Of a DNA stretch of 64,000 nucleotides, positions 11,331 to 58,725 are shown piece after piece. The stretch is from an uncultured virus (IMG/VR IMGVR_UViG_3300034110_001238) (Duplodnaviria; Heunggongvirae; Uroviricota; Caudoviricetes): the IMG/VR virus record IMGVR_UViG_3300034110_001238, one strand, 5' to 3'. Numbering within the stretch: position 1 is the stretch's first letter; every line of letters begins with the position of its first letter. The notes below the pieces were generated by a model that saw only the letters and a program-made list of their open reading frames with translations, ran no database searches and was not told the DNA's origin. The position numbers and the translations under genes are program-made.

Positions 11331-12095
11331 TTAAATCAACAAAATATCTAACAGTGTTTTCTCTTCTGGTGTCATTCGTTCCCAAAACAAATGAAAGTTC
11401 GCTAAGGTTATCTGTGTGCTATCAAACATATTTTCTTCTAGCAGTGATATCTTTTTACTGGTTGCTCTATTTAATATCTGAACCACATTTAATTGATTAC
11501 CTTCAAATTCAATATAGTCAGGATATGTTTGTTTAGATTCATCATTATAGTCATCATAACAAATATGAACAGTTTTTTTATCATTTTTAAAAAGAGACGC
11601 AATAATAAATTGATCAGGAGCATATTTAAAACCAACATCTACACGAATTAAGCTTGGTTTATCTAAAACTAGATTACCTGTTTGTCTAATTTCGAAGTGT
11701 TCAAAAAACGGAACATCAACGGTTTCTGGATACAGATTATATTGTTGTGCTGCATCACTGTAATAACTTTGAAAGGAGCTTTCATAATTTAAATCTGCTT
11801 TCTTAATATACTCCATATTACTTTCAGTATTTTTAATCCAATATTTTTCTTTAACATTTGTATCATAAACATTAATAATTAAAATCAATTCATCAAAAAT
11901 TTGAAAGTATAATTTTGTTAAATTTTTAAATTGTTGAAAACCTGATTTTATAAGCAAATCATAAAATAATTCTGAGCGATGACTTTCAAAACAGACAGTA
12001 GTCGCTGGTGTTCTTAAATAACGAAAAAGCGTTTCTTTTTCTGTCTCGATATCAACAAACAATAAGTGTATATCGGTATTTTCCAAATCCATCAT
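11331..12095 (-). CDS. hypothetical protein, tandem paralog family A
   Basis: Shares GFKY..D and ITLxNFHLFW with neighbours. Confidence 0.8.
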   Translation of the reverse strand: MMDLENTDIHLLFVDIETEKETLFRYLRTPATTVCFESHRSELFYDLLIKSGFQQFKNLTKLYFQIFDELILIINVYDTNVKEKYWIKNTESNMEYIKKADLNYESSFQSYYSDAAQQYNLYPETVDVPFFEHFEIRQTGNLVLDKPSLIRVDVGFKYAPDQFIIASLFKNDKKTVHICYDDYNDESKQTYPDYIEFEGNQLNVVQILNRATSKKISLLEENMFDSTQITLANFHLFWERMTPEEKTLLDILLI

Positions 12096-12136
12096 ATAAG
12101 AATCCTCATTTTAAATATTTTTAAATATGTAAGCGA

Positions 12137-12916
12137 CTACACCATTAACATTTCAATCAATGTTAGTTGTTCAGCAGTGTAACGTTCCCAGAAAAGGTGA
12201 TAATTATCAAGTGTAATATGAGCATCAAATTCATCACGAACATTCATCATCGACATCTTTTTCTGATTCTTTGGATTAAATATTATTAAATCGACCAGTT
12301 CATCATTAATAAACTGAATAAATTCGGCATACATATACTGACAGTTAGGTGTATAGGTATCATATTGAATTTGTATACGTTTATCCGCTCTATCAAAAAC
12401 AGAACCAAACATAAATTTATCTTGACCATATTTAAAACCTAAATCTAATCTAAGCAGTTTCGGTGTTTCATAAGCTGACCGAACTAGATAATTAACGTAA
12501 AAAGGCATATCTAAAGATTCTGGAAAGAGTTTATGATTAAAGACTTCACTATCGCTATGAAAATCTTTAAATGAACCATTATAAGCCTTTTTATTACTAA
12601 ATGATTCTACCGCTTTCAAGTTCGCTGTAGAGTTGTAAAGATAATATTTTTCTCTCATTACAAAATTATCGACACTGGCTTCTAAGTAAACAACGAAAAT
12701 ATACGCTCCTAAAACTTGAAAGTAATGTGGAGTGTCAGCCGTCTTAATTTTTGAAAAACCAGCGTTGCTAAAAACATTGTCTAGCATTTCATAATTGTAG
12801 TTAATAAAAGCAACACACACATCTGTTTCATACACATGGTTAGAAAATTCGTTCGCATCAAAGGTATTAATATTTACAGTGATAAGCTTCATCTCATTGT
12901 TTTTTAAATCAATCAT
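12137..12916 (-). CDS. hypothetical protein, tandem paralog family A
   Basis: GFKYGQD, ITLDNYHLFW. Confidence 0.8.
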   Translation of the reverse strand: MIDLKNNEMKLITVNINTFDANEFSNHVYETDVCVAFINYNYEMLDNVFSNAGFSKIKTADTPHYFQVLGAYIFVVYLEASVDNFVMREKYYLYNSTANLKAVESFSNKKAYNGSFKDFHSDSEVFNHKLFPESLDMPFYVNYLVRSAYETPKLLRLDLGFKYGQDKFMFGSVFDRADKRIQIQYDTYTPNCQYMYAEFIQFINDELVDLIIFNPKNQKKMSMMNVRDEFDAHITLDNYHLFWERYTAEQLTLIEMLMV

Positions 12917-12926
12917 TATTCAATCC

Positions 12927-13685
12927 TTATATTGCAGACATTTCAACAAGAAGTTTTTGTTCTGGTGTAAAATCATTCCAAAATAAATGAAAGTTATCCA
13001 AAGTAATAGCAGTGACATCTATAATATCAGAATCCTGTGTGATATCTAAATTTATTTTTTTTGTTTTGTTGATTAATCTAGCAACATTCATGCGGCCAGC
13101 AACAAATTCAATAAAATCAGAACATAAATGATCAAATTTATCAACATAATTTGTATAACTTATGTGGACATAACTGCCTTTCCGATGAAAAATTCTAACT
13201 GACATCATTTTATCTTTTTCGTATTTAAATGAAAGTACAATTTTATTAATTTTAATTTGTTCATCAATGATATGAGTAACATCAAACATTTCATTAAATG
13301 GAGTTTCCAAGGTTGTATCATAAAATTGATAAATACTCTCATTGATACAATCTAAAGATTCCAAGGGATCATAGGATTCCTTAAAATTATTTTCAATATA
13401 ATTAAGATTTCCGTCAGTTAATTGAACCCAGAATTTATCCCTAATATAGAAATCTTCTACATGAACTAGAAGTATCTTTCCATTAGTAACCTTATAGTGG
13501 ATAGTTCGTAATGTTGAACTGATGTCTTTAAACCCATGAAAAAGCAAAATATCTTTAATAATAGATTCATCTTCATAAAAATATACGGTCGTACCAATGG
13601 TTGTCAACGCCGTCATGAAAATATCGTTAGGTAGACTTTTAGTAACGAATAAAACATTAGGTTCTATGTTTTTAATATCCAGCAT
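12927..13685 (-). CDS. hypothetical protein, tandem paralog family A
   Basis: SFKYEKD, ITLDNFHLFW. Confidence 0.8.
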   Translation of the reverse strand: MLDIKNIEPNVLFVTKSLPNDIFMTALTTIGTTVYFYEDESIIKDILLFHGFKDISSTLRTIHYKVTNGKILLVHVEDFYIRDKFWVQLTDGNLNYIENNFKESYDPLESLDCINESIYQFYDTTLETPFNEMFDVTHIIDEQIKINKIVLSFKYEKDKMMSVRIFHRKGSYVHISYTNYVDKFDHLCSDFIEFVAGRMNVARLINKTKKINLDITQDSDIIDVTAITLDNFHLFWNDFTPEQKLLVEMSAI

Positions 13686-13760
13686 GATAAGACCTCATTA
13701 GAATGCCAGTATTATAGCACATTCCATGTAGAGATATCAATAAAAAATAACCCTATACGT

Positions 13761-14531
13761 TTATTCAATCAGCATTTCAATAACTGTTAAAGTTTCTTTA
13801 TTAATTTTTTGGAAAAATAAATGATAGTTATCAATGTTGACATGACTGGTATCAATTAATGAATTTAGGTTGGTTGATTTAACAGATCCTTTCTTGTTTT
13901 CCACTGCATAGGATATTAATGTTCCATATTCAGAGAATGTTAAGTCTGTTACAATTAGGTTATTGTTGTCTTCATTTGAAATATATTGAACATCAAACAT
14001 GCCGTCCATCCAAACTTGTTCAATACGGTATTTTAAATCTTGATATTTAAATACACTATACGTCACACCCATATCCAGATGCTCAGGAAAATCAAAAACT
14101 TCTTTATAGGCTTTTGTGTTACTTGTTATATAAAATGCATTTCCAAGCAATGTTTCTTCGGAGTCACCAACCGTTGATAAAAGTTGAAGAGCGTTCTCAC
14201 GATTTAAGCTCTTAATGATATTAAGATTTCGTTCATTGTTTAAGATGTATGATTTTGATGATATATAAGATTTATTTGTGTTATTTAAACGTGCTATGTC
14301 AATTAATAGGATGTAATTGTCAAAAGATTTAAAAAGATATTCACTGGATTCTAAATTGACAATAGAGATAAAGCCAGCTTGTTCTAAAAGAGATGACTTT
14401 ATTACATTGTCATCAAATACTGCAGTTTTCCCAACTTTGAAAATGATATGCTCTAATTCATCAATGGTGAGAGGTGCAGCGTATCGTATTCGATTTTTCA
14501 ATTTTTGCTCCTTAAAAAAAATGAAGGTCAT
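13761..14531 (-). CDS. hypothetical protein, divergent family A member
   Basis: FKYQD, VNIDNYHLFF; GGAGG RBS before 14531. Confidence 0.75.
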   Translation of the reverse strand: MTFIFFKEQKLKNRIRYAAPLTIDELEHIIFKVGKTAVFDDNVIKSSLLEQAGFISIVNLESSEYLFKSFDNYILLIDIARLNNTNKSYISSKSYILNNERNLNIIKSLNRENALQLLSTVGDSEETLLGNAFYITSNTKAYKEVFDFPEHLDMGVTYSVFKYQDLKYRIEQVWMDGMFDVQYISNEDNNNLIVTDLTFSEYGTLISYAVENKKGSVKSTNLNSLIDTSHVNIDNYHLFFQKINKETLTVIEMLIE

Positions 14532-17765: not shown

Positions 17766-17850
17766 GCGGATGTGGCGAAACTGGTAAACGCGACTGTCTC
17801 AAACACAGTTTCTATAATGATTGTGAGTTCAAGTCTCACCTTCCGCACCA
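17766..17850 (+). tRNA. tRNA-Leu(CAA), slightly divergent
   Basis: Cloverleaf, ACTGT-CTCAAAC-ACAGT, one T-T mismatch in acceptor, ACCA end. Confidence 0.85.
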
Positions 17851-17949
17851 AATAAAGATTTAAAATTGGGTTGCTCCGGTTCCCACTGGAAACTTTGAAA
17901 CATAGTAATTATTAGCTTGTAACTCACTATTATCAAAGTCAAACCCCTG

Positions 17950-18033
17950 ATGAGTATGATGTAATGGTAGCCATAATGTCTTCGCTTAGACATGCCCCAT
18001 AAAGGCGTAAGGGTTCGAGTCCCTTTACTCATT
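17950..18033 (+). ncRNA. tRNA-like RNA with aberrant 8-nt anticodon loop, no encoded CCA
   Basis: ATGAGTA/TACTCAT acceptor, D arm, ATGTC-TTCGCTTA-GACAT, long variable arm, AAGGG-TTCGAGT-CCCTT. Confidence 0.65.
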
Positions 18034-18040
18034 AAGATAT

Positions 18041-18124
18041 GCGATTGTGGTGGAATGGTATACACGTTGGTCTAAGAAGCCAATGCCGCAAGGATTGAGA
18101 GTTCAAGTCTCTCCAATCGCACCA
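18041..18124 (+). tRNA. tRNA-Leu(AAG)
   Basis: TTGGT-CTAAGAA-GCCAA; full cloverleaf; ACCA. Confidence 0.9.
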
Positions 18125-18156
18125 GATTTATAGTAAGATATGTAGCTACAACATAA

Positions 18157-18240
18157 GCCCCGATGGCGGAATGGTAGACGCGGCGGATTCAAAATCCGTT
18201 TCCGAAAGGAGTGGGAGTTCGAGTCTCCCTCGGGGCACCA
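18157..18240 (+). tRNA. tRNA-Leu(CAA)
   Basis: GCGGA-TTCAAAA-TCCGT; ACCA. Confidence 0.95.
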
Positions 18241-18262
18241 AATTGATGTAAAGAAATATCAC

Positions 18263-18346
18263 GCGGAAGTGATGAAATGGTAGACGTGCTGGCCTTAGAA
18301 GCCAGTGTCGAGAGACGTGTGGGTTCGAGTCCCACCTTCCGCACCA
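18263..18346 (+). tRNA. tRNA-Leu(TAG)
   Basis: CTGGC-CTTAGAA-GCCAG; ACCA. Confidence 0.95.
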
Positions 18347-18350
18347 GATT

Positions 18351-18500
18351 GCTTAAATGATGGAATGGTAGACATAGGGTGATAGCCCTGTCATTACAGG
18401 TTCGAATCCTGTTATTAGTATCTTACTAATATGGCGGAACGGTAGACGCGATGGACATTGAGTCCATGACTTGTAGGTTCGACTCCTACTTTAAGCGACA
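18351..18500 (+). ncRNA. double (domain-swapped) tRNA-like RNA with two D arms and two T arms
   Basis: GCTTAAA(18351-57) pairs with TTTAAGC(18490-96); internal TATTAGTA-TCT-TACTAATA hairpin lies between T arm 1 and D arm 2. Confidence 0.75.
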
Positions 18501-18506
18501 AATTAT

Positions 18507-18590
18507 GCGTTAGTGGTGGAATGGTATACACGCTGGTCTAAGAAGCCAGTGCCGAAAGGATTGTGAGTTCGAGTCTCACCTAACGCACCA
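18507..18590 (+). tRNA. tRNA-Leu(AAG)
   Basis: CTGGT-CTAAGAA-GCCAG; ACCA. Confidence 0.9.
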
Positions 18591-18601
18591 AATTTAGATA
18601 T

Positions 18602-18687
18602 GCCCGAATGGTGAAATTGGTAGTACACAGGAGACTTAAAATCTCCCGCTGAAAGGCGTGTCGGTTCGAGTCCGACTTCGGGTACCA
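18602..18687 (+). tRNA. tRNA-Leu(TAA)
   Basis: GGAGA-CTTAAAA-TCTCC; ACCA. Confidence 0.95.
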
Positions 18688-18701
18688 AATTATGAGTTAC
18701 T

Positions 18702-18786
18702 GCGGAAGTGATGAAATGGTAGCACATGCTGGTTTCAGAAACCAGTGCCGCGAGGCGTGTGGGTTCGAGTCCCATCTTCCGTACCA
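18702..18786 (+). tRNA. tRNA-Leu(CAG)
   Basis: CTGGT-TTCAGAA-ACCAG; ACCA. Confidence 0.95.
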
Positions 18787-18797
18787 GATTTAGATAT

Positions 18798-18883
18798 GCC
18801 CGAATGGTGAAATTGGTAGTACACAGGAGATTCAAAATCTCCCGCTGAAAAGCGTGTCGGTTCGAGTCCGACTTCGGGTACCA
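18798..18883 (+). tRNA. tRNA-Leu(CAA)
   Basis: GGAGA-TTCAAAA-TCTCC; ACCA. Confidence 0.95.
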
Positions 18884-18901
18884 GATTGTACATGTGTTTA
18901 T

Positions 18902-18986
18902 CCCCGGATGGTGGAATTGGTAGACACAGGAGACTTAAAATCTCCCGCCGAAAGGCGTGCCGGTTCGAGTCCGGCTCCGGGGACCA
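18902..18986 (+). tRNA. tRNA-Leu(TAA)
   Basis: GGAGA-CTTAAAA-TCTCC; ACCA. Confidence 0.95.
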
Positions 18987-18990
18987 GATT

Positions 18991-19088
18991 TAATTCAATA
19001 TCGAAGGTTCGAATCCTTTTCTCGTGTTTGCACGGGGTGGTGGAGTGGTAGACACGTTTGCTGAAATGCATTCTAAAATATTGAATTA
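18991..19088 (+). ncRNA. circularly permuted tRNA-like RNA (T arm - closed acceptor - D arm; YrlA-like topology)
   Basis: GAAGG-TTCGAAT-CCTTT, TCTCGTG-TTTG-CACGGGG, TG, GTG-GAGTGGTAGA-CAC, closed by TAATTCAATAT/ATATTGAATTA. Confidence 0.75.
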
Positions 19089-19097
19089 CTTTTTTAT

Positions 19098-19181
19098 GCC
19101 CGAATGGCGAAATGGTAGACGCGGGGGACTTAAAATCCCCTTCCTTCGGGAGTGACGGTTCGAGTCCGTCTTCGGGCACCA
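19098..19181 (+). tRNA. tRNA-Leu(TAA)
   Basis: GGGGA-CTTAAAA-TCCCC; ACCA. Confidence 0.95.
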
Positions 19182-19216
19182 ACTTTATGTTTTATTTCTT
19201 ACAAAGGTATTTAAAC

Positions 19217-19561
19217 ATGACAAACTCAGCCAAAGGTAAAATTGTTATCGTTAATTTGTATGACAATCGTTATTGGAATATCTTCCTTGATGGCGAACTG
19301 GTTGCAGAGCCACATAAAGAAGATTTTACTGATTATGTCTTTAAACGTTCTATTCGAAAAGAATGGGCCGATATTGCTGGTGTTGATGAAACTGATTTGA
19401 GTTACAGTTTAATTGATTTATATGAACATGAAGATAGTATTCCTGATTATGATGCCAATGATTTTGAAGACTATCAAGATTTGATAACCTGTTGCAAAAA
19501 TAATAATATAGATTTTATCTTTGAAAATGTTGATTTAAACTATATTGAAAAGAAGTATTAA
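19217..19561 (+). CDS. small acidic hypothetical protein inside the tRNA array
   Basis: AAGGT RBS before ATG 19217; the longer ORF call overlaps a tRNA. Confidence 0.7.
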   Translation: MTNSAKGKIVIVNLYDNRYWNIFLDGELVAEPHKEDFTDYVFKRSIRKEWADIAGVDETDLSYSLIDLYEHEDSIPDYDANDFEDYQDLITCCKNNNIDFIFENVDLNYIEKKY

Positions 19562-19568
19562 TGTCTAT

Positions 19569-19652
19569 GCGGAAATGGTGGAATGGTAGACACGCTGGTC
19601 TTAGAAGCCAGTGCCGAAAGGCGTGTGGGTTCGAGTCCCACTTTCCGCACCA
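19569..19652 (+). tRNA. tRNA-Leu(TAG)
   Basis: CTGGT-CTTAGAA-GCCAG; ACCA. Confidence 0.95.
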
Positions 19653-21990: not shown

Positions 21991-22965
21991 ATGCAGAACT
22001 TTGAAACAAAAGAATTAGACAACGCCCTTAAATTTTTAAGTCTTCTTGGCTGTGAATTAAGCTCACTTGAATATATAGAAAAAGATGGCGTTTTTTATAA
22101 TTCTAAAAGCTTTGAACCTATCGACAACCTCTTGACTTATATCTTAATCAACTATCAACATCCATCTGATCTTCATTTTAATTTTGATAGTAGAAATAAA
22201 ACCATTGGGTTAAGAATTAGGCGACATGGGCAACTGATAAAAACATCATTAATATCAACTTCAAAAGACAATTATACCAATGCTCAATTTGGAAACAGTT
22301 CAATAAATTATTCAACAGAATATTTTAAAGATATATTTTCAAAAATTATTGTTAAAAGTTCAATGGAAAGTGGAGAAAGTTACGATTTCCTAAGCGATGT
22401 AACCATTCCTGTTTTTGGCAATTATAGATTAATGAAAGTTGCTTGTGGTCATGATGGACTTGTAAGAATTCTCAGTCAAGATCAAAATTATGGTATTAGT
22501 CATGATAATAATATTATGCAAATTAAAGAAAATCCTATATACATAGGTGAAGCTGAATTTAACAAAAACCTACTGATTTGTAGTTCATTTATTACATTAA
22601 CTCCTGAAATTCAACAACAAGTTGAACTCTACAATGATAACATATTAAAAATGTTTAATGCCATTCCTCATCTAATTGAATCATTTAATAATGGCTATCT
22701 AGATAAAAAAATGAAACTTGTTTTAGAATATATCGGTGACAATGTAATCAATGTCAGTATTTCAAAAAATTATTCAACTGGGCATGAAATGGACAAAGTT
22801 ATTTCAAAATATCTTTATGAAAATTATCAAGATTTTTATGATCCAGTCTTCACAAACTTTGTTGAAAATGTGACCAAAGTAAAAATAGATCCAACAATTG
22901 GAGAGTTTAAAACACCAGAAGCTTTTCAAAATTATCTGTTATCACTCGCTATGTTTAAAATTTAA
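21991..22965 (+). CDS. hypothetical protein (C-terminal MxxI motif)
   Basis: ORF with AAGGA RBS; ends SLAMFKI. Confidence 0.75.
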   Translation: MQNFETKELDNALKFLSLLGCELSSLEYIEKDGVFYNSKSFEPIDNLLTYILINYQHPSDLHFNFDSRNKTIGLRIRRHGQLIKTSLISTSKDNYTNAQFGNSSINYSTEYFKDIFSKIIVKSSMESGESYDFLSDVTIPVFGNYRLMKVACGHDGLVRILSQDQNYGISHDNNIMQIKENPIYIGEAEFNKNLLICSSFITLTPEIQQQVELYNDNILKMFNAIPHLIESFNNGYLDKKMKLVLEYIGDNVINVSISKNYSTGHEMDKVISKYLYENYQDFYDPVFTNFVENVTKVKIDPTIGEFKTPEAFQNYLLSLAMFKI

Positions 22966-23019: not shown

Positions 23020-24150
23020 TTATAGTTGTTGTAATTCTTCGATACTGACTGTTTTCGACGTGTTTGTTTCTCTGTTCAACACTTCATATTGATTGTTAAC
23101 AATACTCTTGTTACTGACAATAATACGATTGCTGACACCAATCAATTCACTATCATTGAACTTATTACCTGCTGAGATATTTCTATCATCTAACAAGACT
23201 GAATAACCTTGTTTCTTTAATGATTGATAAAGACCATCAGCGACTTCTTTATTCTTCTCATAATCAATAGCCGTTATAATGTAATCAAAGGTATTGAAAG
23301 CTGCAGTGCCAAAGAAACCTTTTTCATCACGTTGTTTTTCTAATAAAGCCATCAATGTTCTGGATACACCAATACCAAAGCATGCCATATTCACATGTTG
23401 TTTGATATTATCCAATAAGCCCATTTTTTCAGAGTAGTGAATACCCAAGTTAAAGATGTGTCCTATTTCAAGGTTTTTGCTACCATCTTCACCGATATCC
23501 TCACCAAACTCACTGATACAACGGAACTCTTCTGACGCTATACCACCCATCTCACCCACATCAGATCCTTGAATATGAAATTCTAATCCTAAACGTGTAA
23601 ATATTTTGATATAGGCTTCTTTCACTTCATTGTAAGTCGTCACAATATTCTCTTTGCTATTAGAGAAATGATAAGCATCTGACATTAAAAACTCACGACC
23701 ACGCACTAAACCAGATTTAGCTCTTAACTCATCTCTATATTTATTACCAATTTGAAACATCTTCAAATTTGTTTTCGTAAAATTGTAGTAAGACTTTACA
23801 ATGTTAGTGATGGATTCTTCACATGTAGCACTCAAAACAAGCTCTTTGCCAGCCCTGTTTTTTAATTTGAATAATTCTTCACCGTATTGGTCATATCGGC
23901 CCGTTTCTTTCCATAAATCAGCGTCTTGAATTAAACTTAAACGCATTTGTGAAAAGCCAATCTCTGATAATTCATCTTCGATGATTCGTTCTATCTTCTT
24001 CTCTAAGATATAACCCAGTGACAAAGTGGAATAAATGCCAGATGAGTCTTGATTAAAGAAGCACGCTTTTTTAGTTAAGTCTACCAAGTTCAATGATTGG
24101 TTATCTTTAGCGAATGAACTGTTGTTAAAAAATATGTTTGAAAATTTCAT
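23020..24150 (-). CDS. proS: prolyl-tRNA synthetase, short form lacking the INS editing domain
   Basis: LWKETGRY, ATCEE, KYRDELRAKSGLVRGREFLMSDAY, EIGHIFNLG, MACFGIGVSR, LLDDR anticodon-binding domain. Confidence 0.93.
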   Translation of the reverse strand: MKFSNIFFNNSSFAKDNQSLNLVDLTKKACFFNQDSSGIYSTLSLGYILEKKIERIIEDELSEIGFSQMRLSLIQDADLWKETGRYDQYGEELFKLKNRAGKELVLSATCEESITNIVKSYYNFTKTNLKMFQIGNKYRDELRAKSGLVRGREFLMSDAYHFSNSKENIVTTYNEVKEAYIKIFTRLGLEFHIQGSDVGEMGGIASEEFRCISEFGEDIGEDGSKNLEIGHIFNLGIHYSEKMGLLDNIKQHVNMACFGIGVSRTLMALLEKQRDEKGFFGTAAFNTFDYIITAIDYEKNKEVADGLYQSLKKQGYSVLLDDRNISAGNKFNDSELIGVSNRIIVSNKSIVNNQYEVLNRETNTSKTVSIEELQQL

Positions 24151-25204: not shown

Positions 25205-25321
25205 ATGGTTTCTCCAATATATTCATTTATAAAAAAATTTAAACACTATAATAAAATTTTCAACTCAAAATGGCAATCAATATTTTTCATGATAATCTAT
25301 TTGAAAGACTATGAGTTCAAT

Positions 25322-25750
25322 ATGGAAAAGTTAACATTTGCGAAACGTGTAAAGATAGCTGAAAAAAGATTAGGGATTAAGTTGCCTATATCTTATATAA
25401 AATTTATCAAAGGATTTGAAGGCGTTGAACATTCAGATGACAAATGTTCTGGTAAATGGTTGACATTAGAAGAATTAGGAGACGGCAATGACTTCAACAT
25501 TGATATTGATGACAGCACACCAGAAATACGCTCAAAATTAGTTGTTGTGTATACAAACAGCGTAAATGATCGACTTGTTATAGATACACGTCCTATTAAC
25601 GATGGCAGTTATGGTACCATTATTTATCCCGGTGATCCAGAAACAGACTCAGTAGACATTCAATATTATAATTTTGAAGAATTTTTGGACAGTGAAGCCC
25701 GATTAGATGAAAACAACCAATTACAGTTTGATTATTTTAGTTGGGGTTAA
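25322..25750 (+). CDS. SMI1/KNR4 (SUKH) family protein
   Basis: AEKRLGIKLPISYIKF...NFEEFL. Confidence 0.75.
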   Translation: MEKLTFAKRVKIAEKRLGIKLPISYIKFIKGFEGVEHSDDKCSGKWLTLEELGDGNDFNIDIDDSTPEIRSKLVVVYTNSVNDRLVIDTRPINDGSYGTIIYPGDPETDSVDIQYYNFEEFLDSEARLDENNQLQFDYFSWG

Positions 25751-25854
25751 AAAACATTAAATTTGGCTTTTTTAAGAATTAATTTGAATGTGTGCCGTTG
25801 ACTTTATTCTTTTTCGATCTATTCTAATTTTAATTTATTAAAATGGAGTCTGTT

Positions 25855-26544
25855 ATGAATGAAAAAATATTGGAAGTTACAATAACAAGTAAAAATACTC
25901 ATATGAAAAATGAACTACAAGTGCATGATGCAGTACTCACTTATGAACGTAACACTGGAAATCCTTTTAACAGAAAAACAACAACAGTCTATTCCCAAAC
26001 TACATATTATGATAACTATACAAAAATAAAAATTGAAGCCATAGATAAAGAAAATAAAACATATTCATTAAAAGTATCTAGAGATGATTTTTTACCAGAA
26101 ATAGGTGATACAATCAAAGTGTGTATCAATAATTATAATGAAATAATAGCCTATCAACCTTACACTAATGCTGATCCAGTTTCTATAATAAAAAATCATA
26201 AATTTAGTCCATTTGATTACTATAAATGGTCATTTATAATTTATACGTTTCCCTTGTCATCTCCATTCATTGCACTACAAGCACTGAAGACTGAGAAAAA
26301 ATTCGTAGATGGTGATTTAAAAAATACATACATTTTTAGTATTACTGCACTGGTAATCATAGCGATTCAAATCTATTCTTCATACAATCTTTATAAATAT
26401 GGCTGGTCAGGATTTGTTCATTCAGCAATAGGGTACGTAATATCTGGTGCCCTTTTTGTAGGTTCAATTTTATTACATGATCTACGAGAAACAGCAAGTA
26501 AATCATTATATATCTCGAAATTAAAAAAAATGTTGAAAAATTAA
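25855..26544 (+). CDS. membrane protein (C-terminal TMs)
   Basis: GGAG RBS; three hydrophobic segments. Confidence 0.7.
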   Translation: MNEKILEVTITSKNTHMKNELQVHDAVLTYERNTGNPFNRKTTTVYSQTTYYDNYTKIKIEAIDKENKTYSLKVSRDDFLPEIGDTIKVCINNYNEIIAYQPYTNADPVSIIKNHKFSPFDYYKWSFIIYTFPLSSPFIALQALKTEKKFVDGDLKNTYIFSITALVIIAIQIYSSYNLYKYGWSGFVHSAIGYVISGALFVGSILLHDLRETASKSLYISKLKKMLKN

Positions 26545-26557
26545 GGAGCTTAAAATT

Positions 26558-27265
26558 ATGTTTAAAATTCATAAATGTGAAGTTAGAAATAAAAAAGAAT
26601 ACAACATAAAAAATGGTGAAACTAGAATTGTTAATGCTTATGGAGGTGGTCATAGACATTACGTACAAGAGAAAAAAATAAATGGAATAGTTGCTGGTGA
26701 TTATACTTTATATCAATATGATCTCAAAGATATAGAAACTGGTCAACTTTTTGCTATGAAGACAGAATATAACATCGAACTTGATGATAAACCTTTATAC
26801 ATAGGAGTAGAAGGTAAGGATATTGTTGCGTTCTCAAAAAATGAATTAAGTGATAAAAAGAAAGAAGGTCAAAAAAATTATACTTTAATCGAAAACAAAA
26901 CATCATATTTTACAATAAAACAATTTTTTATAGGTCTTTTAATATTATTTGCATATATGATTCCTTTTGCACAAGTAGTGATGCATTGGTCATTTATTAA
27001 AGATTGGTCAAATGAAATAAAAAAGGATTATTCAAATTATCCAAAACTTGTATTTCAAATAATTATGGGACTTATGTTATTAAATTATTTAAAAATTCTT
27101 TATTTGGGCTTGGGTAAGCACAGCAATACACTTGCTGGATGGTATTCTTACATACAGCCATTGACAATAACAACAGGATTATTATCGTTTGCTATTTTTA
27201 TTGGTGGATTATGTTATTTCAAAATAAAAAGAATTAAAAATTTAGAGAATTTTAATAATATATAA
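26558..27265 (+). CDS. membrane protein with similar architecture to the upstream ORF
   Basis: AGGAG RBS; three C-terminal hydrophobic segments. Confidence 0.7.
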   Translation: MFKIHKCEVRNKKEYNIKNGETRIVNAYGGGHRHYVQEKKINGIVAGDYTLYQYDLKDIETGQLFAMKTEYNIELDDKPLYIGVEGKDIVAFSKNELSDKKKEGQKNYTLIENKTSYFTIKQFFIGLLILFAYMIPFAQVVMHWSFIKDWSNEIKKDYSNYPKLVFQIIMGLMLLNYLKILYLGLGKHSNTLAGWYSYIQPLTITTGLLSFAIFIGGLCYFKIKRIKNLENFNNI

Positions 27266-27308
27266 AAAAGGAGCCTAGGCTCCTTCTTTATTTAGACATA
27301 ATAAATAT

Positions 27309-29225
27309 TTATGAACGACATAATGCACTACCACTTGTTGATCCTTGCAAAACATAATTGTAACCGCCATTACTAAAGTTTTTTGGTTGACCAGTATAAA
27401 ATGCTTTTCCAGCCCAATAAGCAACCATTGTCGTTGGTCCATATAATCTTATTTCATTTGCATTACTCATATGAAGAATCCACTGACCATTACATTCTTG
27501 AACAATCTTTGTTCCTGTCGCTGATCTTGTAGAAGATACTGTAATTGACTGTGTTTCAGTGAATGCTGAACCATTATTACGAATAGCCCCAGTCGTTGTC
27601 TCTCTATCTCTATTTTGAGTTGAACGTGTTTGGCTTTGTGAACAATTAGTCGCTGTTTGTGTAAAACCAGTCCCTGCTGCAACGGTTGATGGATCTGGTG
27701 TCCAATTTGAACAACCAGTGACTGCACCACTATTAACCCAATCAGTTGATGTTGGTGTTGTAGCCACCCAAGTTTCTTTTGTGCCAGTAGATGAACGTGT
27801 AGACGATGTTGTAATTGTCTGATTTTCAGTTACTGCTACTCCTTTATTACGAACAGCCCCAGTCGTTGTTTCTTGTTCACGATCTTGTCTTGAACGAGTT
27901 TGAGCTTGCTGGCAATCAGTTGCTGTTTGAGTAAATGCTTGTCCAATAGTTACAGTAGCTGGTGCTGGTGTCCAGTTTGAACAACTTGTCACCGAACCAT
28001 TATTAACCCAAGCTGTATACGTTGAAGTTGTCGCAGACCAAGTTTCTTTTGTTCCTACTGCTGCTTGTGTCGATGATACTGTAATTGTTTGGTTCTCTGT
28101 CACTGCTGAGCCTATATTTCTAACTGCTCCTGTAGTTCCTTCAATTTCTCTATCTTGTCTTGAACGAGTTTGATCCTGCTTGCAATCAGTAGCCGTTTGT
28201 GTAAAAGCTTGTCCAATAGTAATAGTTGCAGGAGAAGGTGCCCAGTTACTACAAGCGGTAATTGATCCAGTATTAGTCCAATTAGTATAAGTCGAAGTAG
28301 TTGCCGTCCACGATTCTTTAGTTCCAACCGCTGCTCGTGTTGAAGTAGCTGTAATAATTTTATTTTCTACAACAGATAAACCTTTATTACGAATTTCAAG
28401 TGTTGTTGTTTCTTGCTCACGATCTTGTTTGTTACGAGTTTGAGGTTGTTTACAATCAGTAGCCGTTTGAGTAAACGATTGATTAATTGTCACTGTTGTT
28501 GTAGCTGGTGACCAATTTGTACAGCTATTTAATGCACCATTATTCGCCCATTCCGTATATGTTGGAGCTATCAACGCCCACGTTTCTTTTGTACCCGTAG
28601 CTTGTCTGTTTGATGAGGCTACAATATTTTGATTTTCAAGAATTGCATTTCCTTTATCACGAATCGAAAGTGTCGTTGTTTCTTGTTCACGTTCTTGCTT
28701 ATAACGAGTTTGAGGTTGAGCACAATCAGTAGCCGTTTGAGTGAATGCTTCATTAATGGTTACACTTGATGGTGCTGGTGACCAGTTAGTACAACTATTT
28801 AAAATACCACTATTAACCCAATTTGTATAAGTAGGACTTATAGATAACCATGTTTCCAGTGAACCAATTGCTTGGCGTAAATCACTAGCAGTGATTGTAT
28901 TGTATTCTGTGTAAGGTGCTCCTGAATTACGTGTAGTTCCCGTCACTGAATCAGTTTCTCTTTTTTGAACACTTCGTTCTTGATCTTGCTTACAATCATT
29001 AGCTTGTTGATTAAATTTTTCACCAACAGTAACAGTTGAAGGATTTGGTGACCAATTAGAACAATCATAGATATTTCCTATGTTCATCCAATCTCCTAAT
29101 AATGGAGTAGCAGTTGACCAACTATAAAATTGTATTTTAGAATTAAGTGGGATAGTGACAGTGTAATCTGCATGAACCGAGCTTAAAGCTAAAGTAGCGA
29201 TTGCTACAAAGGCTATTTTTTTCAT
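27309..29225 (-). CDS. secreted protein with six 90-aa Trp/Cys/Thr-rich repeats (ADY-type family)
   Basis: Signal peptide MKKIAF...VHA-DY; repeated WxNxGxxxxCxNWxP...FTQTATDCxQxQTR. Confidence 0.85.
   Translation of the reverse strand: MKKIAFVAIATLALSSVHADYTVTIPLNSKIQFYSWSTATPLLGDWMNIGNIYDCSNWSPNPSTVTVGEKFNQQANDCKQDQERSVQKRETDSVTGTTRNSGAPYTEYNTITASDLRQAIGSLETWLSISPTYTNWVNSGILNSCTNWSPAPSSVTINEAFTQTATDCAQPQTRYKQEREQETTTLSIRDKGNAILENQNIVASSNRQATGTKETWALIAPTYTEWANNGALNSCTNWSPATTTVTINQSFTQTATDCKQPQTRNKQDREQETTTLEIRNKGLSVVENKIITATSTRAAVGTKESWTATTSTYTNWTNTGSITACSNWAPSPATITIGQAFTQTATDCKQDQTRSRQDREIEGTTGAVRNIGSAVTENQTITVSSTQAAVGTKETWSATTSTYTAWVNNGSVTSCSNWTPAPATVTIGQAFTQTATDCQQAQTRSRQDREQETTTGAVRNKGVAVTENQTITTSSTRSSTGTKETWVATTPTSTDWVNSGAVTGCSNWTPDPSTVAAGTGFTQTATNCSQSQTRSTQNRDRETTTGAIRNNGSAFTETQSITVSSTRSATGTKIVQECNGQWILHMSNANEIRLYGPTTMVAYWAGKAFYTGQPKNFSNGGYNYVLQGSTSGSALCRS
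27511..29130. repeat. six imperfect 270-bp tandem coding repeats
   Basis: Equivalent positions at 27511, 27781, 28051, 28321, 28591 and 28861. Confidence 0.9.
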
Positions 29226-29323
29226 GTTTAACTTTTTATTGTTATTTGTATAATAATGTAACATATATATTAAAATACACAACAAAAAAAAGAGCCTAAG
29301 CTCCTTTTTGTATCGGATTGTAT

Positions 29324-33107: not shown

Positions 33108-33346
33108 TTAAATCTCCATCATGTTGTATAAGTCAATTTTTTCTTTATAACTCGATCCAGCAATCTCAATATGATTCTTTTTAAAATATTTATCAAGATA
33201 GTCCTGAACAACTAATAAAAAATTTTCACAATTGCTTTCTCTTTCATCTACTTCACTGTAGTAAGTCATTTTAAACTCATAAGTCACTTCTGATATCGCA
33301 TATATAACGATTTCTGTGCCTTAATTTCGAAATTAATTTTTTTCAT
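33108..33346 (-). pseudogene. internally deleted / frameshifted paralog of the 33347 gene
   Basis: MKKINFEIK start is out of frame with ISEVTYEFK...YKEKIDLYNMMEI*, which aligns with the neighbour's C-terminus. Confidence 0.65.
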
Positions 33347-33949
33347 TCAAATCACAATCATGCTGTAAAGATCGAGTTTACGCTTGTAGTCAGCACCACT
33401 CACATCGACATCTGTTTTAGCAAAGTAATCATCAAGATGGCGATCCACATAAGAAATATAATCGGTACAGCTCTCAGACTGACCATTTTCTTTGACATTA
33501 AATGAGATTTCAAACTCGTAGCTCACATTGCTAATTTTATGACGAAGAATACCACGCTCATCATGCACTTGATCAACATCACATTTAATAAGCAAGTAAG
33601 GTTTACCATTGTAAGATGCTTTTGTGATTTGCTTGAAAATTGGCAAATAGTCTTTTGCTTTTTTAATATGATTTTTAATAACACCACTATTAATCGTCAT
33701 CCCATTAGCTTTATTAAACCCATTATCTAAAGGAATACGAACAAACAACGAAAGATTTTCAATTTGCTTAGTGTATTTAAAATCCATGACCATAATACGA
33801 AGATCGTTGGATGAAAGATAGTTCTCAGTATTGTAATAAATGGTGAGATCTTTTTTACCATAATAATAAGTAGTGCGGCCTTTTTCAACCGTTAAATCAA
33901 AATAAGCTTGAAAAGTATTAAGGAACTTATCGCTATCAAATGTTTTCAT
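33347..33949 (-). CDS. hypothetical protein (C-terminal MxxI motif)
   Basis: Start MKTFD after AAGGT RBS; ends LYSMIVI. Confidence 0.75.
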   Translation of the reverse strand: MKTFDSDKFLNTFQAYFDLTVEKGRTTYYYGKKDLTIYYNTENYLSSNDLRIMVMDFKYTKQIENLSLFVRIPLDNGFNKANGMTINSGVIKNHIKKAKDYLPIFKQITKASYNGKPYLLIKCDVDQVHDERGILRHKISNVSYEFEISFNVKENGQSESCTDYISYVDRHLDDYFAKTDVDVSGADYKRKLDLYSMIVI

Positions 33950-37465: not shown

Positions 37466-38149
37466 TTAAATATTTACCATTCTCAAGACCTTGTAATGTG
37501 CCAAAGTCACATCAGCTTTATCAATACCCAGTCGATGTGTAATGAATCTTTCAATAAAAGCATTTTCAAATTCTGGGTAATTACCTTTTCTAATAGCATG
37601 ATTATCTTTTGAAAATTCTCTAGCAGTAGAGTAATTATAAGAAATATGATTATTCAACATAATCGGTTGAGTATCAATACCAATACCTATACCGACTGAA
37701 AAACGAGAATCTTCCATGCCCGTTTCTTCAACAAGATGATGATAGTTGGCTCCATCATGAATATAACAATACATCAAATCAGCAGCAGTATTTATATCTT
37801 TTAGATTAATATTACGACCAAAAGCAAACGCATACAAAAATTTAAAACGATTAATATTTCTGTTTAATGTTTCATAGTCAATAGGTGTCGATTGTGGAAA
37901 AAGCTCAAACAACTTATAAAAAGCTTTCTCGCTTTTTAATTCAATACTAATATAATCATTGTAATAATATCCTAAGAAGCTAACGCCTTTAAAACGTCCT
38001 TCTGAGATATTGACATCATAACGATTACCAATATACTCGATGTTTACAACAGCATCTTCCGACATGTAAGGTAAAAGAGCCTCACGGAAAATATCCATGT
38101 GCTCAATCATTTCAGGTTCATCAGGTTCATAAATTTCATTAACAATCAT
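37466..38149 (-). CDS. hypothetical protein, paralog of 34662
   Basis: Ends VLRMVNI. Confidence 0.8.
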   Translation of the reverse strand: MIVNEIYEPDEPEMIEHMDIFREALLPYMSEDAVVNIEYIGNRYDVNISEGRFKGVSFLGYYYNDYISIELKSEKAFYKLFELFPQSTPIDYETLNRNINRFKFLYAFAFGRNINLKDINTAADLMYCYIHDGANYHHLVEETGMEDSRFSVGIGIGIDTQPIMLNNHISYNYSTAREFSKDNHAIRKGNYPEFENAFIERFITHRLGIDKADVTLAHYKVLRMVNI

Positions 38150-41362: not shown

Positions 41363-42319
41363 ATGGATTATTGGGAACATTACAATCAATTAAGAATGCA
41401 CACACGTTCTCAATACTCAAATAAACATCGAGATGATATCCCTTATCATTATCAAAAAAACAATTTAGCTTACAATAAAGAAAATTGTATGTTTACAATA
41501 ATTGTAAGTGGAAAGCTTAAATTAAAAATTCAGTTTCAACCAGAACAGCAACAATTCCATGTTGCATTTTATTTAGGCTATTTTTTCAAAAAGCTGGTCT
41601 ATGAGTTCAATCTCAAAATGACACCAAAGCCAGCCGATGAGATGAAAATCTATATGGAAGAAGTAGACACGTCAAGTAAAAAAAATAAGCTGGATCATGC
41701 TAGCCGCCACATTGTTGAACTTGTTAACAGTTGTCCTTTCATCTATGCAACCCGAAAAGATTTCAAAACATTGTCAAAAAATGGCGTGAAGAACTACTAT
41801 CACTTTATCAAAACAACAATGGATTTCAGTGTCAATAATGATCGAGACAGTCCTGTCTACAAATGTTACGCTGCTAACAAAGCAGGAGAACCAGAAGTCT
41901 ATCATGTATATGATGGACAATTGAGAGAAATTCATAAAAATAAAGGCGTTGAATTTATTGACGAACATATGGAAATAAAACAAAAATTAGTAAAAACGCC
42001 ATATTTTGTTTCAAAACGTATTAGCCACGATGAGTGGTTTCTTATTGCAGACTTTTCAAACAATTGCACTGGCTTCTTAGCTAATTGTATGGGTCATTAT
42101 ATTTATGTTTTAAAATATGGTCAAAATTCAATCAGAGTAACCGGGACAGACAAAGAATTTTCATTGAATGAATTGCTATCCAAGTATTCTTTGGATTACT
42201 TTAAAGAAAACAAGTCATTTAATGCTGAAAGTATTGATAGTTTATTTAATGAGTTCGGACTAGATGCTAACAATTTAACAGAGAAAGATTTTGAAGTATA
42301 TCGCATGTATGAGTACTAA
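41363..42319 (+). CDS. hypothetical protein (C-terminal Mxx-hydrophobic motif)
   Basis: AGGAGG RBS; ends VYRMYEY. Confidence 0.75.
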   Translation: MDYWEHYNQLRMHTRSQYSNKHRDDIPYHYQKNNLAYNKENCMFTIIVSGKLKLKIQFQPEQQQFHVAFYLGYFFKKLVYEFNLKMTPKPADEMKIYMEEVDTSSKKNKLDHASRHIVELVNSCPFIYATRKDFKTLSKNGVKNYYHFIKTTMDFSVNNDRDSPVYKCYAANKAGEPEVYHVYDGQLREIHKNKGVEFIDEHMEIKQKLVKTPYFVSKRISHDEWFLIADFSNNCTGFLANCMGHYIYVLKYGQNSIRVTGTDKEFSLNELLSKYSLDYFKENKSFNAESIDSLFNEFGLDANNLTEKDFEVYRMYEY

Positions 42320-56415: not shown

Positions 56416-56693
56416 AATTTCCTCTCTTTCTTTATAAATATTTTACCAAAAATAAGGGTAAAAGTCAAATTTTTAGGATGTTTTACAATAGTTTAAATCA
56501 TTGATTTAAAAGGATTTTCTAAAATATTTTTGATTATTTTTTCAAATTATTTTAATACGATTTAAAGATGACTTTTTTGTCGAAAATATGTTTTTTAATC
56601 AACCTATCCATATTAAATTTATTGATGAGTGACATTGATTATTGTTTTAATTGCTATAGATTAATAGATAATATTGATTTTTGAGGATAAAAT

Positions 56694-57467
56694 ATGGATA
56701 ATAGAGAATTATTAGAAGATGCATTAGATAAACATTTCCCTGATTCTGATATCTCTATTTTTGAAGCGGCATACATGAAAAATGGATTTCAAGTAGGCAT
56801 AGAACAAAAAGGTCTTAAATTTTCTTTTTTCGTTAAGAACAATTTTATAGAAGCTTTGCAGTCTAAATATAATGATTTTGAAGACACCAAGAAAGCAACT
56901 AACATTATATTGCCTGACAATAACAAAATGTCATTGATCAATAATTTCATGAAGTCTTTTTATGAAGGTGGCTATTTTAGAAAAATAATGAAACCTTTTT
57001 TATATTTTGATCAAGAAAAGATGTATGAAATATCAGGATATAAAGAAAGTTTGAAACTTATACACAATTTATCAAATTCATCGACATCAATTTGTAAAAT
57101 TGACAATCAAAAATATTTATTTTATCTTAATTACCAATTCAAAATGACAAAAAAAAGAGAAATTATAGCCGTTCCTGTGTTATCTTTCTTTACTGGTAAA
57201 GATATAGACTTTCAATTTGATATAGCATTTAACATTGAAAAACAGTCTACTTATTTTGTTAAATCATATCCTATATATTATGAAGATTTCTTTGAAGAAA
57301 ATGATATTTTTGATTTTGATAAAGATTTAGATATTATATTTAGAAATTTTATTGACAAAAATGTTATGAAAAATATCGACCCAACAAATGAATTAGGTCG
57401 GCAGTTGGCATCTTTGGGCGACGATATAGATGAAAAATTAAAATTACTCTTAATGTATTCAATCTAA
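56694..57467 (+). CDS. hypothetical protein (C-terminal MxxI motif)
   Basis: Ends LLLMYSI. Confidence 0.75.
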   Translation: MDNRELLEDALDKHFPDSDISIFEAAYMKNGFQVGIEQKGLKFSFFVKNNFIEALQSKYNDFEDTKKATNIILPDNNKMSLINNFMKSFYEGGYFRKIMKPFLYFDQEKMYEISGYKESLKLIHNLSNSSTSICKIDNQKYLFYLNYQFKMTKKREIIAVPVLSFFTGKDIDFQFDIAFNIEKQSTYFVKSYPIYYEDFFEENDIFDFDKDLDIIFRNFIDKNVMKNIDPTNELGRQLASLGDDIDEKLKLLLMYSI

Positions 57468-57480
57468 TGAGAGTTAATAA

Positions 57481-58725
57481 TCAACAATTCATATAATTTG
57501 TGATTTCATAGAGATGATAATGTTCGGTCTTTAAATCATTGACAGATGTATCTAATTTATCAGCAATTTCTTGTTTAAAAGAATCTTTCATCAATTTGAA
57601 AAAATCTTCTGGTTCTTCATTGCTGTATTTCTTTGGCAGATCTAATGAGTGTTCTTTTCCTTGAAAAAAGTTTAACAATATTGCTGAGTTTTCAAAATCA
57701 CCTATATCTATGGATACATCACCAATTTCACCACTCGCTGGGTCGAGATTGTCTGCAAATATAGATAAGTTATAGATATCTGAATACTTTAATTTGTATT
57801 TAGATGGATATCTAAAAGTCAACCGATAGACTAACTTTTTACCTTTAGAAAGCTGTTGTCTAAAATGACTAAAACTAACCACTTGTCGAATAAAAAAAGC
57901 ATCCTTTTCATTTAAAATGGTATCAGTTAACATTAAAATATTATTATGGTCATAGGTCTTATAACATTGATTGCCACTCTGCTCATTTGTAATTAATTTT
58001 TCTTTGAAATTAAACTCATTACAAAGACTTCCAATGTTTTTAATATTCAATTGTGTAGTAGTGCTTTGAACTCCATCAAATACTGACATTTTGCTACGTT
58101 TTAATATGTAGTCTGTTGTCACATTAGAGCGTCCAATGACTCTTGCAATCTCTTGAATTTTATTGCGATGGCAATTGTTTATAAATTTATCAAAAAGCGT
58201 ATCAAAATGCTCGAAATCAATCAGAGCTATTTTAAAATAATAACCATATATTTCAAAAGAAATAATGTTACTGTCTATTTTAAAAACAATAGAAATAGGA
58301 CTGTCACTCTCAATGTCATACGCTGTAAGTTTTACATACCCATTTTCGTTTCTAATTTCTACAGATACTGCATTTTTATTTTTATCAGACGAACCATAAT
58401 TAAGATCATAATAAAAATTAACTGCAGCGATATATTGACGACAATTATTGATTTTTTTACCAAGAATGAACTCAATTAAATCAATAACACTGTGAACTGA
58501 TTGGTTAGTGAAGTCATAAAAGAAACAGTTTCTGTCTTTATGCATATCATCAAAGCAAAGACCTGTTGTATAGTTGTTCTCTTTATACTCATCTCTTGGA
58601 TAAATAGGCAAGTTAACACTGTCACAAAACTGTCGAACTTTATGATCAATATAAGGAACCATCTCGACACCCGTAAATGTGCCAGATAGTTCAGTAATAT
58701 TAGTGTTGAAAAGTGCAGGGGTCAT
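57481..58725 (-). CDS. hypothetical protein
   Basis: 414-aa ORF; C-terminus resembles 34662/37466. Confidence 0.75.
   Translation of the reverse strand: MTPALFNTNITELSGTFTGVEMVPYIDHKVRQFCDSVNLPIYPRDEYKENNYTTGLCFDDMHKDRNCFFYDFTNQSVHSVIDLIEFILGKKINNCRQYIAAVNFYYDLNYGSSDKNKNAVSVEIRNENGYVKLTAYDIESDSPISIVFKIDSNIISFEIYGYYFKIALIDFEHFDTLFDKFINNCHRNKIQEIARVIGRSNVTTDYILKRSKMSVFDGVQSTTTQLNIKNIGSLCNEFNFKEKLITNEQSGNQCYKTYDHNNILMLTDTILNEKDAFFIRQVVSFSHFRQQLSKGKKLVYRLTFRYPSKYKLKYSDIYNLSIFADNLDPASGEIGDVSIDIGDFENSAILLNFFQGKEHSLDLPKKYSNEEPEDFFKLMKDSFKQEIADKLDTSVNDLKTEHYHLYEITNYMNC

Follow-up and report, generated by a model that had tools for sequence, protein, structure and literature searches.

Why do so many orphan proteins encoded on a single stretch of uncultured viral DNA end in the same short sequence? 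This question is raised by the IMG/VR record IMGVR_UViG_3300034110_001238, a stretch of 64,000 nucleotides that was analysed over its full length and is called the window here. An earlier note on this DNA had listed 15 C-termini, most of them with methionine exactly at the fourth position from the end (-4), and had proposed a shared docking or targeting helix. In this study, the element, hereafter the tail, was defined as [LVI]-h-x-M-x-x-[IVFY]-COOH (h, hydrophobic) and, as a relaxed rule, by Met at -4 in combination with hydrophobic residues at the very end and at -6 or -7. Besides the window we considered G001, an IMG/VR contig of 181,270 bp labelled “provirus”, which is collinear with the entire window at 85–97% nucleotide identity. 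The tail is a real, protein-level element anchored at the C-terminus, and it occurs on many families of soluble orphan proteins without detectable sequence relation. Twelve intact genes of the window carry it, as do a deletion relic and two variant genes (Table 1).

The enrichment of the tail is evident from several counts. Among the 67 window genes obtained by a simple call of the longest open reading frames (ORFs), 14 have Met at -4, compared with 2.8% Met overall (binomial P 4e-9), although two of these (1149-1436 and 25843-26544) lack the remaining motif, and the tight pattern is found at 9/67 C-termini vs. 13 of 17,931 internal positions. In G001, Met stands at -4 in 46 of 199 ORFs, and the relaxed rule fits 41/199 C-termini vs. 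306/51,867 internal positions, where 1.2 would be expected (P 1e-49); counting only 30 sequence clusters still gives P 2e-32. The anchoring is exact, as the offset of the motif from the C-terminus in G001 is 0 in 41 cases, with 0–3 cases at each other offset within 11 residues. A six-frame control of the window found the relaxed rule before 54 of 9,107 stops, 11 of which are ends of the 67 genes, and outside the region it fits only 2 of 332 ORFs from 80 loci of other Proteobacteria. The Met -4 motif of the earlier note thus holds against internal-position, six-frame and outside controls, in the window as well as in G001, and is stronger than first claimed. Since variants occur (Ile or Ala for Met, one or three added residues, a non-hydrophobic final residue), the true share of tailed proteins is nearer a quarter.

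Could such a pattern result from chance, from composition or from a DNA-level signal that happens to be translated, i.e., a terminator, a promoter or the ribosome-binding site of the next gene? Where genes stand in tandem, the codons of the tail do lie shortly before the next start and in a few cases supply GGAG. However, the tail is also found on genes that precede terminators or convergent genes, the codons at -7, -6, -5 and -1 vary, and the DNA after the stop is heterogeneous and unrelated. Selection therefore acts on the protein and not on the DNA, and the enrichment controls together with the codon variation exclude this explanation, to which we assign a vanishingly small probability. A shared regulatory motif upstream of the carriers was considered as well and rejected: the only enriched word, TGAAATG, derives from the tail codons of the preceding gene.

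Right-aligned, the 41 tails of G001 reveal an element of 13–18 residues in full, with Thr at -17 and -13, Glu at -15 (acidic in 23/41), Asp, Glu or Asn at -11, Tyr at -10, Leu or Phe at -9, Leu, Val or Ile at -7 (38/41), Leu, Ile or Ala at -6 and Glu at -5 (17/41). Met at -4 (41/41) follows from the definition of the rule; at -3, the residues are mixed, with L10, S5, I5, Y4, V3, N3 and A3 as the most frequent seven, and the last residue is Ile in 28/41, with Val or Phe otherwise typical. Acidic residues gather at about -16 to -11, and a [ST]-x-x-[DE] cap lies within -20 to -9 in 21/41 carriers vs. 32/158 other proteins. Compared with these other proteins, Gly and Pro are scarce in the last 12 residues (0.20 vs. 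0.63), the net charge of the last 25 residues is more negative (-2.9 vs. -0.2), the last 11 residues are more hydrophobic on average (+0.25 vs. -0.14), and the hydrophobic moment is lower (0.19 vs. 0.33). A profile of 32 tails matched nothing among all PDB sequences up to E 10.

The tail is also better kept than the proteins that bear it. In 11 pairs of carrier orthologues between window and G001, the last 18 residues are 93.4% identical and the body 85.2%, whereas non-carrier proteins show 88.2% and 86.6%, respectively. In an alignment of the paralogue family here called B (20 rows), Met is found at -4 in all 19 full-length rows, and the farthest row of the alignment is 41% identical to the window protein; in the database homologues of the singleton carrier starting at 21991, it is Met in 12 of 13 and Ile in one. 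Overall, the tail is retained in orthologues down to 41–48% identity.

Table 1. Tail carriers, relic and variants in the window (AF2, AlphaFold2; aa, amino acids).
Feature	Coordinates	Strand	C-terminus	Remarks
Family A paralogue, 254 aa	11331..12095	-	...TPEEKTLLDILLI	variant tail, Ile for Met at -4; tail coded at the low-coordinate end
Family A paralogue, 259 aa	12137..12916	-	...ITLDNYHLFWERYTAEQLTLIEMLMV	AF2 terminal helices 239-245 and 248-258
Family A paralogue, 252 aa	12927..13685	-	...FTPEQKLLVEMSAI	
Family A paralogue, 256 aa from first ATG	13761..14531	-	...NKETLTVIEMLIE	Met at -4, last residue Glu
Singleton carrier, 324 aa	21991..22965	+	...TPEAFQNYLLSLAMFKI	tail at the 22965 end
Singleton carrier, 280 aa	32264..33106	-	...DNFDDYVLVLEMEQI	
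Deletion relic, last 70 codons and stop of a carrier	33108..33320	-	...KEKIDLYNMMEI	intact (194 aa) in G001
Carrier of about 200 aa, paralogue of the 33108 relic	33347..33949	-	...ADYKRKLDLYSMIVI	
Family B paralogue, 236 aa	34662..35372	-	...SEITLMDYKLLPMLNV	
Family B paralogue, 227 aa	37466..38149	-	...ADVTLAHYKVLRMVNI	AF2 terminal helix 218-225
Singleton carrier, 318 aa	41363..42319	+	...LTEKDFEVYRMYEY	tail at the 42319 end
Singleton carrier, 246 aa	43443..44183	-	...GIQNFVYLSKMILI	
Smallest carrier, 124 aa	56041..56415	-	...ITDDDFLLVEMMKF	
Singleton carrier, 257 aa	56694..57467	+	...DDIDEKLKLLLMYSI	tail at the 57467 end
Variant, 414 aa	57481..58725	-	...EHYHLYEITNY-MNC	

All 15 endings listed before are present in the sequence, the coordinate quoted for each being the low coordinate of its ORF; in the three plus-strand genes (21991-22965, 41363-42319 and 56694-57467), the tail accordingly lies at the other, high-coordinate end. 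The gene described as a relic is genuinely one: at 33108-33346 (-), an internal deletion with frame change has left only the first 7 and the last 70 codons of a carrier gene, and the remaining coding part of the end (33111-33320, -) is 73% identical over these 70 residues to the intact G001 gene. For its paralogue at 33347, the ORF extends to 34072, but the homologue begins at MKTFD. The variant at 57481 is a tail with three extra residues; its G001 orthologue ends in ...EHYILYEMMNF-MGI. Between two carriers lies an orphan of 210 aa (34020-34652, -), whose ORF shares 53 bases with that of the next gene in its upstream-extended form. The orphan ends in ...HHYEQLSMNERVWLYNIANKLSANF; here, YEQLSM resembles a tail and is followed by a 19-residue extension, and the same is found in G001. 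In the family A tails, e.g., at 12140-12220 (-), the segment ITLDNYHLFW resembles the start of the family B tail (VTLAHYKVL) and precedes a second, complete tail, TAEQLTLIEMLMV.

How, then, are the bodies related to which this tail is attached? With the last 22 residues cut off, phmmer sorts the carriers of window and G001 into 30 clusters, and hhalign, run on all 435 cluster pairs, gave a probability above 50% for one pair, 20–50% for two and less than 20% for the remaining 432, so that the impression of unrelated-looking families was borne out. The only pair above 50% are the tandem neighbours G59470 and G60562 (83%). When the tails were kept (13 clusters, 78 pairs), the best probability was 3%, and 12 of the top alignments ran tail to tail. 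For families A and B, deeper alignments (12 and 20 rows, respectively) give a match probability of 0.35% over 13 columns, which align the start of the B tail with the penultimate helix of A (ITLDNYHL); from this alignment, family A may possess one and a half copies of the element.

Searches of the bodies against Pfam, PHROGs and PADLOC (34 carriers scanned for the latter, without any match) returned nothing except a PHROG domain in the N-terminal part of a 492-aa carrier. For 16 window proteins, there was no Pfam match at family cut-off, and up to E 0.1 only three sub-threshold matches to unrelated families appeared. The earlier statement that the enzymes lack the tail is confirmed by the 119 G001 proteins examined, where a Pfam match is found in 0/27 carriers vs. 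33/92 non-carriers (Fisher P 5e-5). Leads from the ESM Atlas to Imm35 and DUF4304, i.e., to polymorphic-toxin immunity, reached a feature score of 0.78, which is under the level that shuffled proteins often reach, and the 16 window proteins had no Pfam match to an immunity family of this type.

The 492-aa carrier of G001 (165353-166831) is a special case. Its N-terminal half contains the domain phrog_21276 (4e-56), and 1,030 relatives were found among 1.84 billion representatives, most of those listed being 260–300 aa long and covering residues 1–270 only; 148 of the best 150 of these do not follow the tail rule. An orthologue of 483 aa ends in ...LIDMVSC, and a protein of 232 aa that matches only residues 311–490 ends in ...LLLFDMTVI and represents the tail module standing alone. 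As the relatives covering residues 1–270 are tailless and the 232-aa copy is tailed, the tail belongs to a C-terminal module of about 180 aa. This module, which also exists in free form, has been joined in the 492-aa carrier behind an unrelated and widespread domain of about 270 aa.

Structure prediction by AlphaFold2 for families A and B yielded confident models. The family A model (predicted local distance difference test, pLDDT, 82.2; predicted template modeling score, pTM, 0.81) has an N-terminal alpha/beta part and long beta meanders, followed by the final helices 239-245 and 248-258. The family B model (pLDDT 87.5, pTM 0.81) consists of two meanders of four to five strands with a helix after each, the final helix being 218-225. 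In both models, the tail is predicted to be a short ordered terminal helix, in line with the helix proposed before. Foldseek found no match at E <= 1e-3 in the PDB for either model and none in BFVD for model B, and the best hits of a wide VIA-align search lie within noise (Z 5.9 for family A, to single-layer beta sheets and barrels; Z 5.1 for family B, to alpha/beta folds of the CadC, Mediator and MotA type).

The reading we favour, while giving it somewhat less than an even chance, is that the tail is a constant handle, i.e., a helix at the C-terminus that is read by one common partner. Fast-evolving and variable bodies would each carry an invariant C-terminal helix that plugs into a single common reader, whose existence and nature we infer, and the free end of the chain would be part of the recognised feature. 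That the chain stops strictly three residues past Met, and that Met is preferred with Ile as an occasional substitute, agrees well with a pocket reading the chain end. The handle is supported by this exact anchoring and the fixed Met, but also by the unrelated bodies, the varied architectures and the fusion protein. As to its role, tethering to a hub, an adaptor or an assembly, including association of carriers with each other, would come first, followed by export or packaging and, in third place, by a degradation signal.

Several observations weigh against a handle. The tail helix is hydrophobic nearly all round and has a low hydrophobic moment; no Gly/Pro linker precedes it; and the final blocks of both models have a pLDDT of 81–93, as for a packed helix and not for a loose peptide, even if the models cover two families only. 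Only orphans carry the tail, 30 of the 41 carriers are 180–290 aa long, and 30 of 41 adjoin another carrier, where shuffling gives a mean of 14.8 and a maximum of 26. Most family alignments are very shallow, which makes the profile comparisons weak tests. Finally, secretion-system genes, PDZ or TPR domains, microcompartment shells and encapsulins did not appear in Pfam, PHROGs or NCBIfam scans of the window and the 181-kb G001, and the 181 kb revealed no partner, compartment, scaffold or protease with a peptide-binding domain. The docking or targeting helix proposed earlier is thus supported in part, namely as a C-terminally anchored, protein-level element with a predicted helix.

An ordered helix without linker on clustered orphans of similar size would also fit one diverging superfamily. 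In this alternative, which we regard as possible if somewhat doubtful, an ancestral alpha/beta protein of about 200–280 aa would have multiplied in tandem within the lineage into hyper-divergent paralogues, whose terminal helix is the best-kept piece, e.g., as part of the core or of a dimer interface, without any separate reader. The orphan status, the common size and the clustering of the carriers as well as the all-round hydrophobicity of the helix speak for it, and tandem neighbours without phmmer similarity can be linked by profile, as G59470 and G60562 demonstrate. Moreover, both models are beta-meander sheets with helices which end in hairpin-helix-helix with a well-ordered tail, and in the fusion protein the tail sits on the discrete module and not directly on the enzyme-like domain. 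On the other hand, 432 of 435 profile pairs are without signal, the weak structural neighbours differ between the models (extended single-layer sheets for A, two-layer alpha/beta for B), carrier lengths spread from 124 to 492 aa (median 257), and some carriers have an N-terminal membrane segment. Moreover, so strict a fixation of Met, and a chain end exactly three residues after it in 41 cases, would be surprising for a helix with a purely structural role. The handle and the superfamily are mutually compatible, and both readings remain.

We further compared the tail with known C-terminal signals and can file it under none of them, because the defining features that were tested were either absent or left undecided. 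Constant C-terminal tethering motifs are known from the PRANC F-box-like end of poxvirus ankyrin proteins and from the ClpX-binding peptide that ends SspB. Like the tail, these are short conserved C-terminal helices or peptides on variable proteins, often in expanded paralogue arrays, which link them to one hub; in contrast, there is no likeness in sequence, 16 window proteins gave no Pfam F-box or PRANC match, and the bodies described here are not repeat proteins. In logic, such motifs are the nearest analogues. PDZ class II ligands are hydrophobic at -1 and -3, while the carriers are hydrophobic at -1 by rule and mixed at -3, and no PDZ domain was matched in Pfam scans of the window and 119 G001 proteins. 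LPXTG, PEP-CTERM and related tripartite sorting signals, which combine a signal peptide with a C-terminal motif, a membrane helix and a basic end, differ in that 37/41 carriers lack an N-terminal hydrophobic core and in that the tail, with 13–18 residues and acidic, is too short for a membrane helix. Encapsulation peptides of microcompartments and cargo peptides of encapsulins sit on flexible linkers of a few known enzymes, with the shell genes adjacent. They share with the tail the short terminal helix or peptide on unrelated cargo, and those of microcompartments are similarly acidic with paired hydrophobics; however, no linker is present here (Gly/Pro 0.20 vs. 0.63), no carrier is an enzyme, and Pfam scans of the window and the 119 G001 proteins found no shell or encapsulin family. 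Substrates of ESX/type VII secretion such as EsxB, helical hairpins of about 100 aa from Actinobacteria and Firmicutes, have a C-terminal signal that is read by the ATPase EccC. In EsxB, too, an acidic stretch is followed by Leu, Met and a hydrophobic end in the last seven residues, and the signal is helical on its reader, but the carriers are alpha/beta proteins of 124–492 aa in a genome with proteobacterial-type housekeeping genes. Substrate tails of VirB/VirD4 (type IVA) are net positive over the last ~25 residues, whereas the carriers average -2.9.

The comparison with Dot/Icm (type IVB) secretion leads to a further alternative, namely an export or packaging signal, either for one-step secretion by an ATPase that reads C-termini (type IVB-, I- or VII-like) or for cargo of a phage head or compartment; we consider this distinctly unlikely. 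Translocation signals of Dot/Icm are loose and disordered, and the effectors of Legionella and Coxiella comprise hundreds of unrelated orphan proteins without signal peptide. Similarly, 37 of the 41 carriers have no N-terminal hydrophobic or transmembrane-like stretch by a crude hydropathy rule (four have one), and the carriers are fast-evolving orphans in arrays, which is common among effectors. A hydrophobic residue at -3 or -4, an E-block and a hydrophilic C-terminus are given as signal criteria (PMC3814349). The acidic last 25 residues and the hydrophobic -4 position of the carriers are reminiscent of the first two, Met -4 in 41/41 being set by the rule, and both kinds of C-terminus have acidic residues about 10–17 from the end; however, the hydrophilic signal contrasts with a tail that is sharply defined, hydrophobic and predicted to form an ordered helix. 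A strict EExxE is found within the last 30 residues of 0/41 carriers, and the relaxed form [DE][DE]xx[DE] in 9/41 carriers vs. 14/158 other proteins. The region itself has phage-like traits (the provirus label, strong PHROG matches, a tRNA array and RNA-repair genes) and encodes a eukaryote-like kinase, a NIF phosphatase, Sir2 and LepB_N-like proteins, yet these proteins with eukaryote-like domains are tailless, no Dot/Icm machinery was seen in Pfam scans of window and G001 proteins, and no secretion, capsid, terminase, shell or encapsulin gene was seen in the 181 kb.

A C-terminal degron, by which the tail would deliver the carriers to an AAA+ protease for timed turnover, appears very unlikely to us. 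The exact anchoring at a hydrophobic C-terminus would suit it, and the region encodes a candidate unfoldase, a ClpA-like protein about 41% identical to proteobacterial ClpA, as well as three trypsin-like peptidases. Nevertheless, the LAA-type ends of ssrA-like tags do not resemble the tail, an ordered and packed helix makes a poor degron, a fifth of all genes made for destruction is hard to explain, and no link between tail and ClpA was found. The ClpA-like gene lies at 121545-123821 (-) of G001 (L008:1545-3821) and encodes a 758-aa ClpA-type double AAA+ protein without Clp_N match, whose identity to the ClpA of Proteobacteria is mostly 39–43% and rises to 47% in partial matches. Judged by its sequence against the 63–69% identity of the thioredoxin reductase TrxB encoded in the window, such divergence would fit a second, fast-evolving or acquired ClpA copy.

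Returning to the handle, a bolder version, which we think rather unlikely, is an address label of a hitherto undescribed sorting or tethering system, in which one reader serves dozens to hundreds of fast-evolving proteins directed at hosts or rivals. The reader would recognise the hydrophobic C-terminal helix, Met at -4 and the free end, and might be a coupling ATPase that serves export or packaging, or else a hub, for which the ClpA-like unfoldase of the region is an example. A full-text search of the literature retrieved no description of such a motif among the titles listed, which is weak evidence that it is unpublished, as a motif is not searchable by meaning.

In which genome does this element occur? 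The window has a G+C content of 30%, and about one third of its genes have recognisable domains, including dCMP deaminase, a kinase-phosphatase-RNA ligase fusion, an AI-2E-type transporter, Fpg, a short prolyl-tRNA synthetase (ProRS), TrxB, AsnB, glyceraldehyde-3-phosphate dehydrogenase (GAPDH), a CNNM protein and UvdE; the remainder have no match in Pfam, PHROGs or NCBIfam. Relatives of the window were found on one IMG/VR contig only, plus two metagenome loci. A 20,777-base stretch of G001 is letter-identical to a section of a 1,859,102-bp metagenome contig, and two carrier families have homologues on contigs of 1,917,244 and 1,843,594 bp, so that the host replicon is about 1.9 Mb in size. 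Family A has no relative among 185,579 species genomes. TrxB is 63–69% identical to that of many Gamma- and Betaproteobacteria (best match 69% among the same genomes). The lineage is bacterial, uncultured and AT-rich, with housekeeping genes of proteobacterial type. AGGAG ribosome sites precede 120 of 199 G001 genes, TATAAT boxes occur as well, and the early-promoter word of mimivirus, AAAATTGA, shows no enrichment (22 occurrences vs. 20.6 expected), so that the expression signals are bacterial or phage-like and a giant-virus origin was rejected. A search for capsids of nucleocytoplasmic large DNA viruses gave no match in G001, nor in any control genome, and a tblastn search of 50,697 phage records with two large orphans as queries returned nothing or one weak match. 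Strong PHROG matches of G001 include a radical-SAM protein (1.7e-103), a DprA-like protein, a homing endonuclease, MazG-like enzymes and an RNA ligase, whereas domain and PHROG scans of its 181 kb revealed no capsid, terminase or polymerase. The region may be either a very large island of prophage type or simply a normal stretch of an unusual genome.

Genes for RNA repair and translation are dense in this region. An array of 13 tRNA genes in less than 2 kb (17766-19652, +; 97% identical in G001), 12 of which are confirmed by Rfam, comprises 11 tRNA-Leu with five anticodons (CAA, AAG, TAG, TAA and CAG) and one tRNA-Gln; one ARAGORN call at 17949-18034, with a four-base anticodon, lies below the Rfam threshold. 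The window also encodes a 783-aa fusion of kinase, phosphatase and Rnl1-type ligase (2410-4761, -) and the short ProRS, which lacks the insertion domain (23020-24150). Outside the window, G001 adds RtcB, two further aminoacyl-tRNA synthetases (one class II of the Asp/Lys/Asn type and one class I of the Ile/Leu/Val type), the peptidyl-tRNA hydrolase PTH2, a HAD_SAK_2 protein and a second RNA ligase. A variable spot separates the two sequences: in the window (25843-29285), three genes (233, 235 and 651 aa) have no counterpart in G001, which instead holds other genes at 57376-76100, including two paralogues of about 196 aa followed by a protein of 2,309 aa that contains an Mbeg1-like domain, and a SUKH-1 (SMI1/KNR4) immunity-type protein is encoded at the edge (25205-25750). 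Two tandem orphan paralogues without tail (38151-39089 and 39148-40089, -; 312 and 313 aa, 25% identity, E 1e-13) lie immediately upstream of the family B carrier at 37466-38149, which starts 2 bases from the stop of the first.

Short C-terminal labels on unrelated proteins route many clients through one machine in cells and viruses, and to our knowledge each new label of this kind has yielded a new machine or a new client list. Here, a common short helix terminates about one fifth of the proteins in the region, which are otherwise mutually unrelated orphans, and it has the look of a handle or address label not described before. If the density in the 181 kb held genome-wide, it would mark about 400 client proteins; if, instead, all carriers share one fold, they would represent an extreme case of paralogue diversification with the terminal helix as sole survivor. 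The tail offers a one-line rule for spotting a whole functional class in a lineage without close relative among 185,579 species genomes, and the tail peptide is a concrete bait for finding its reader.

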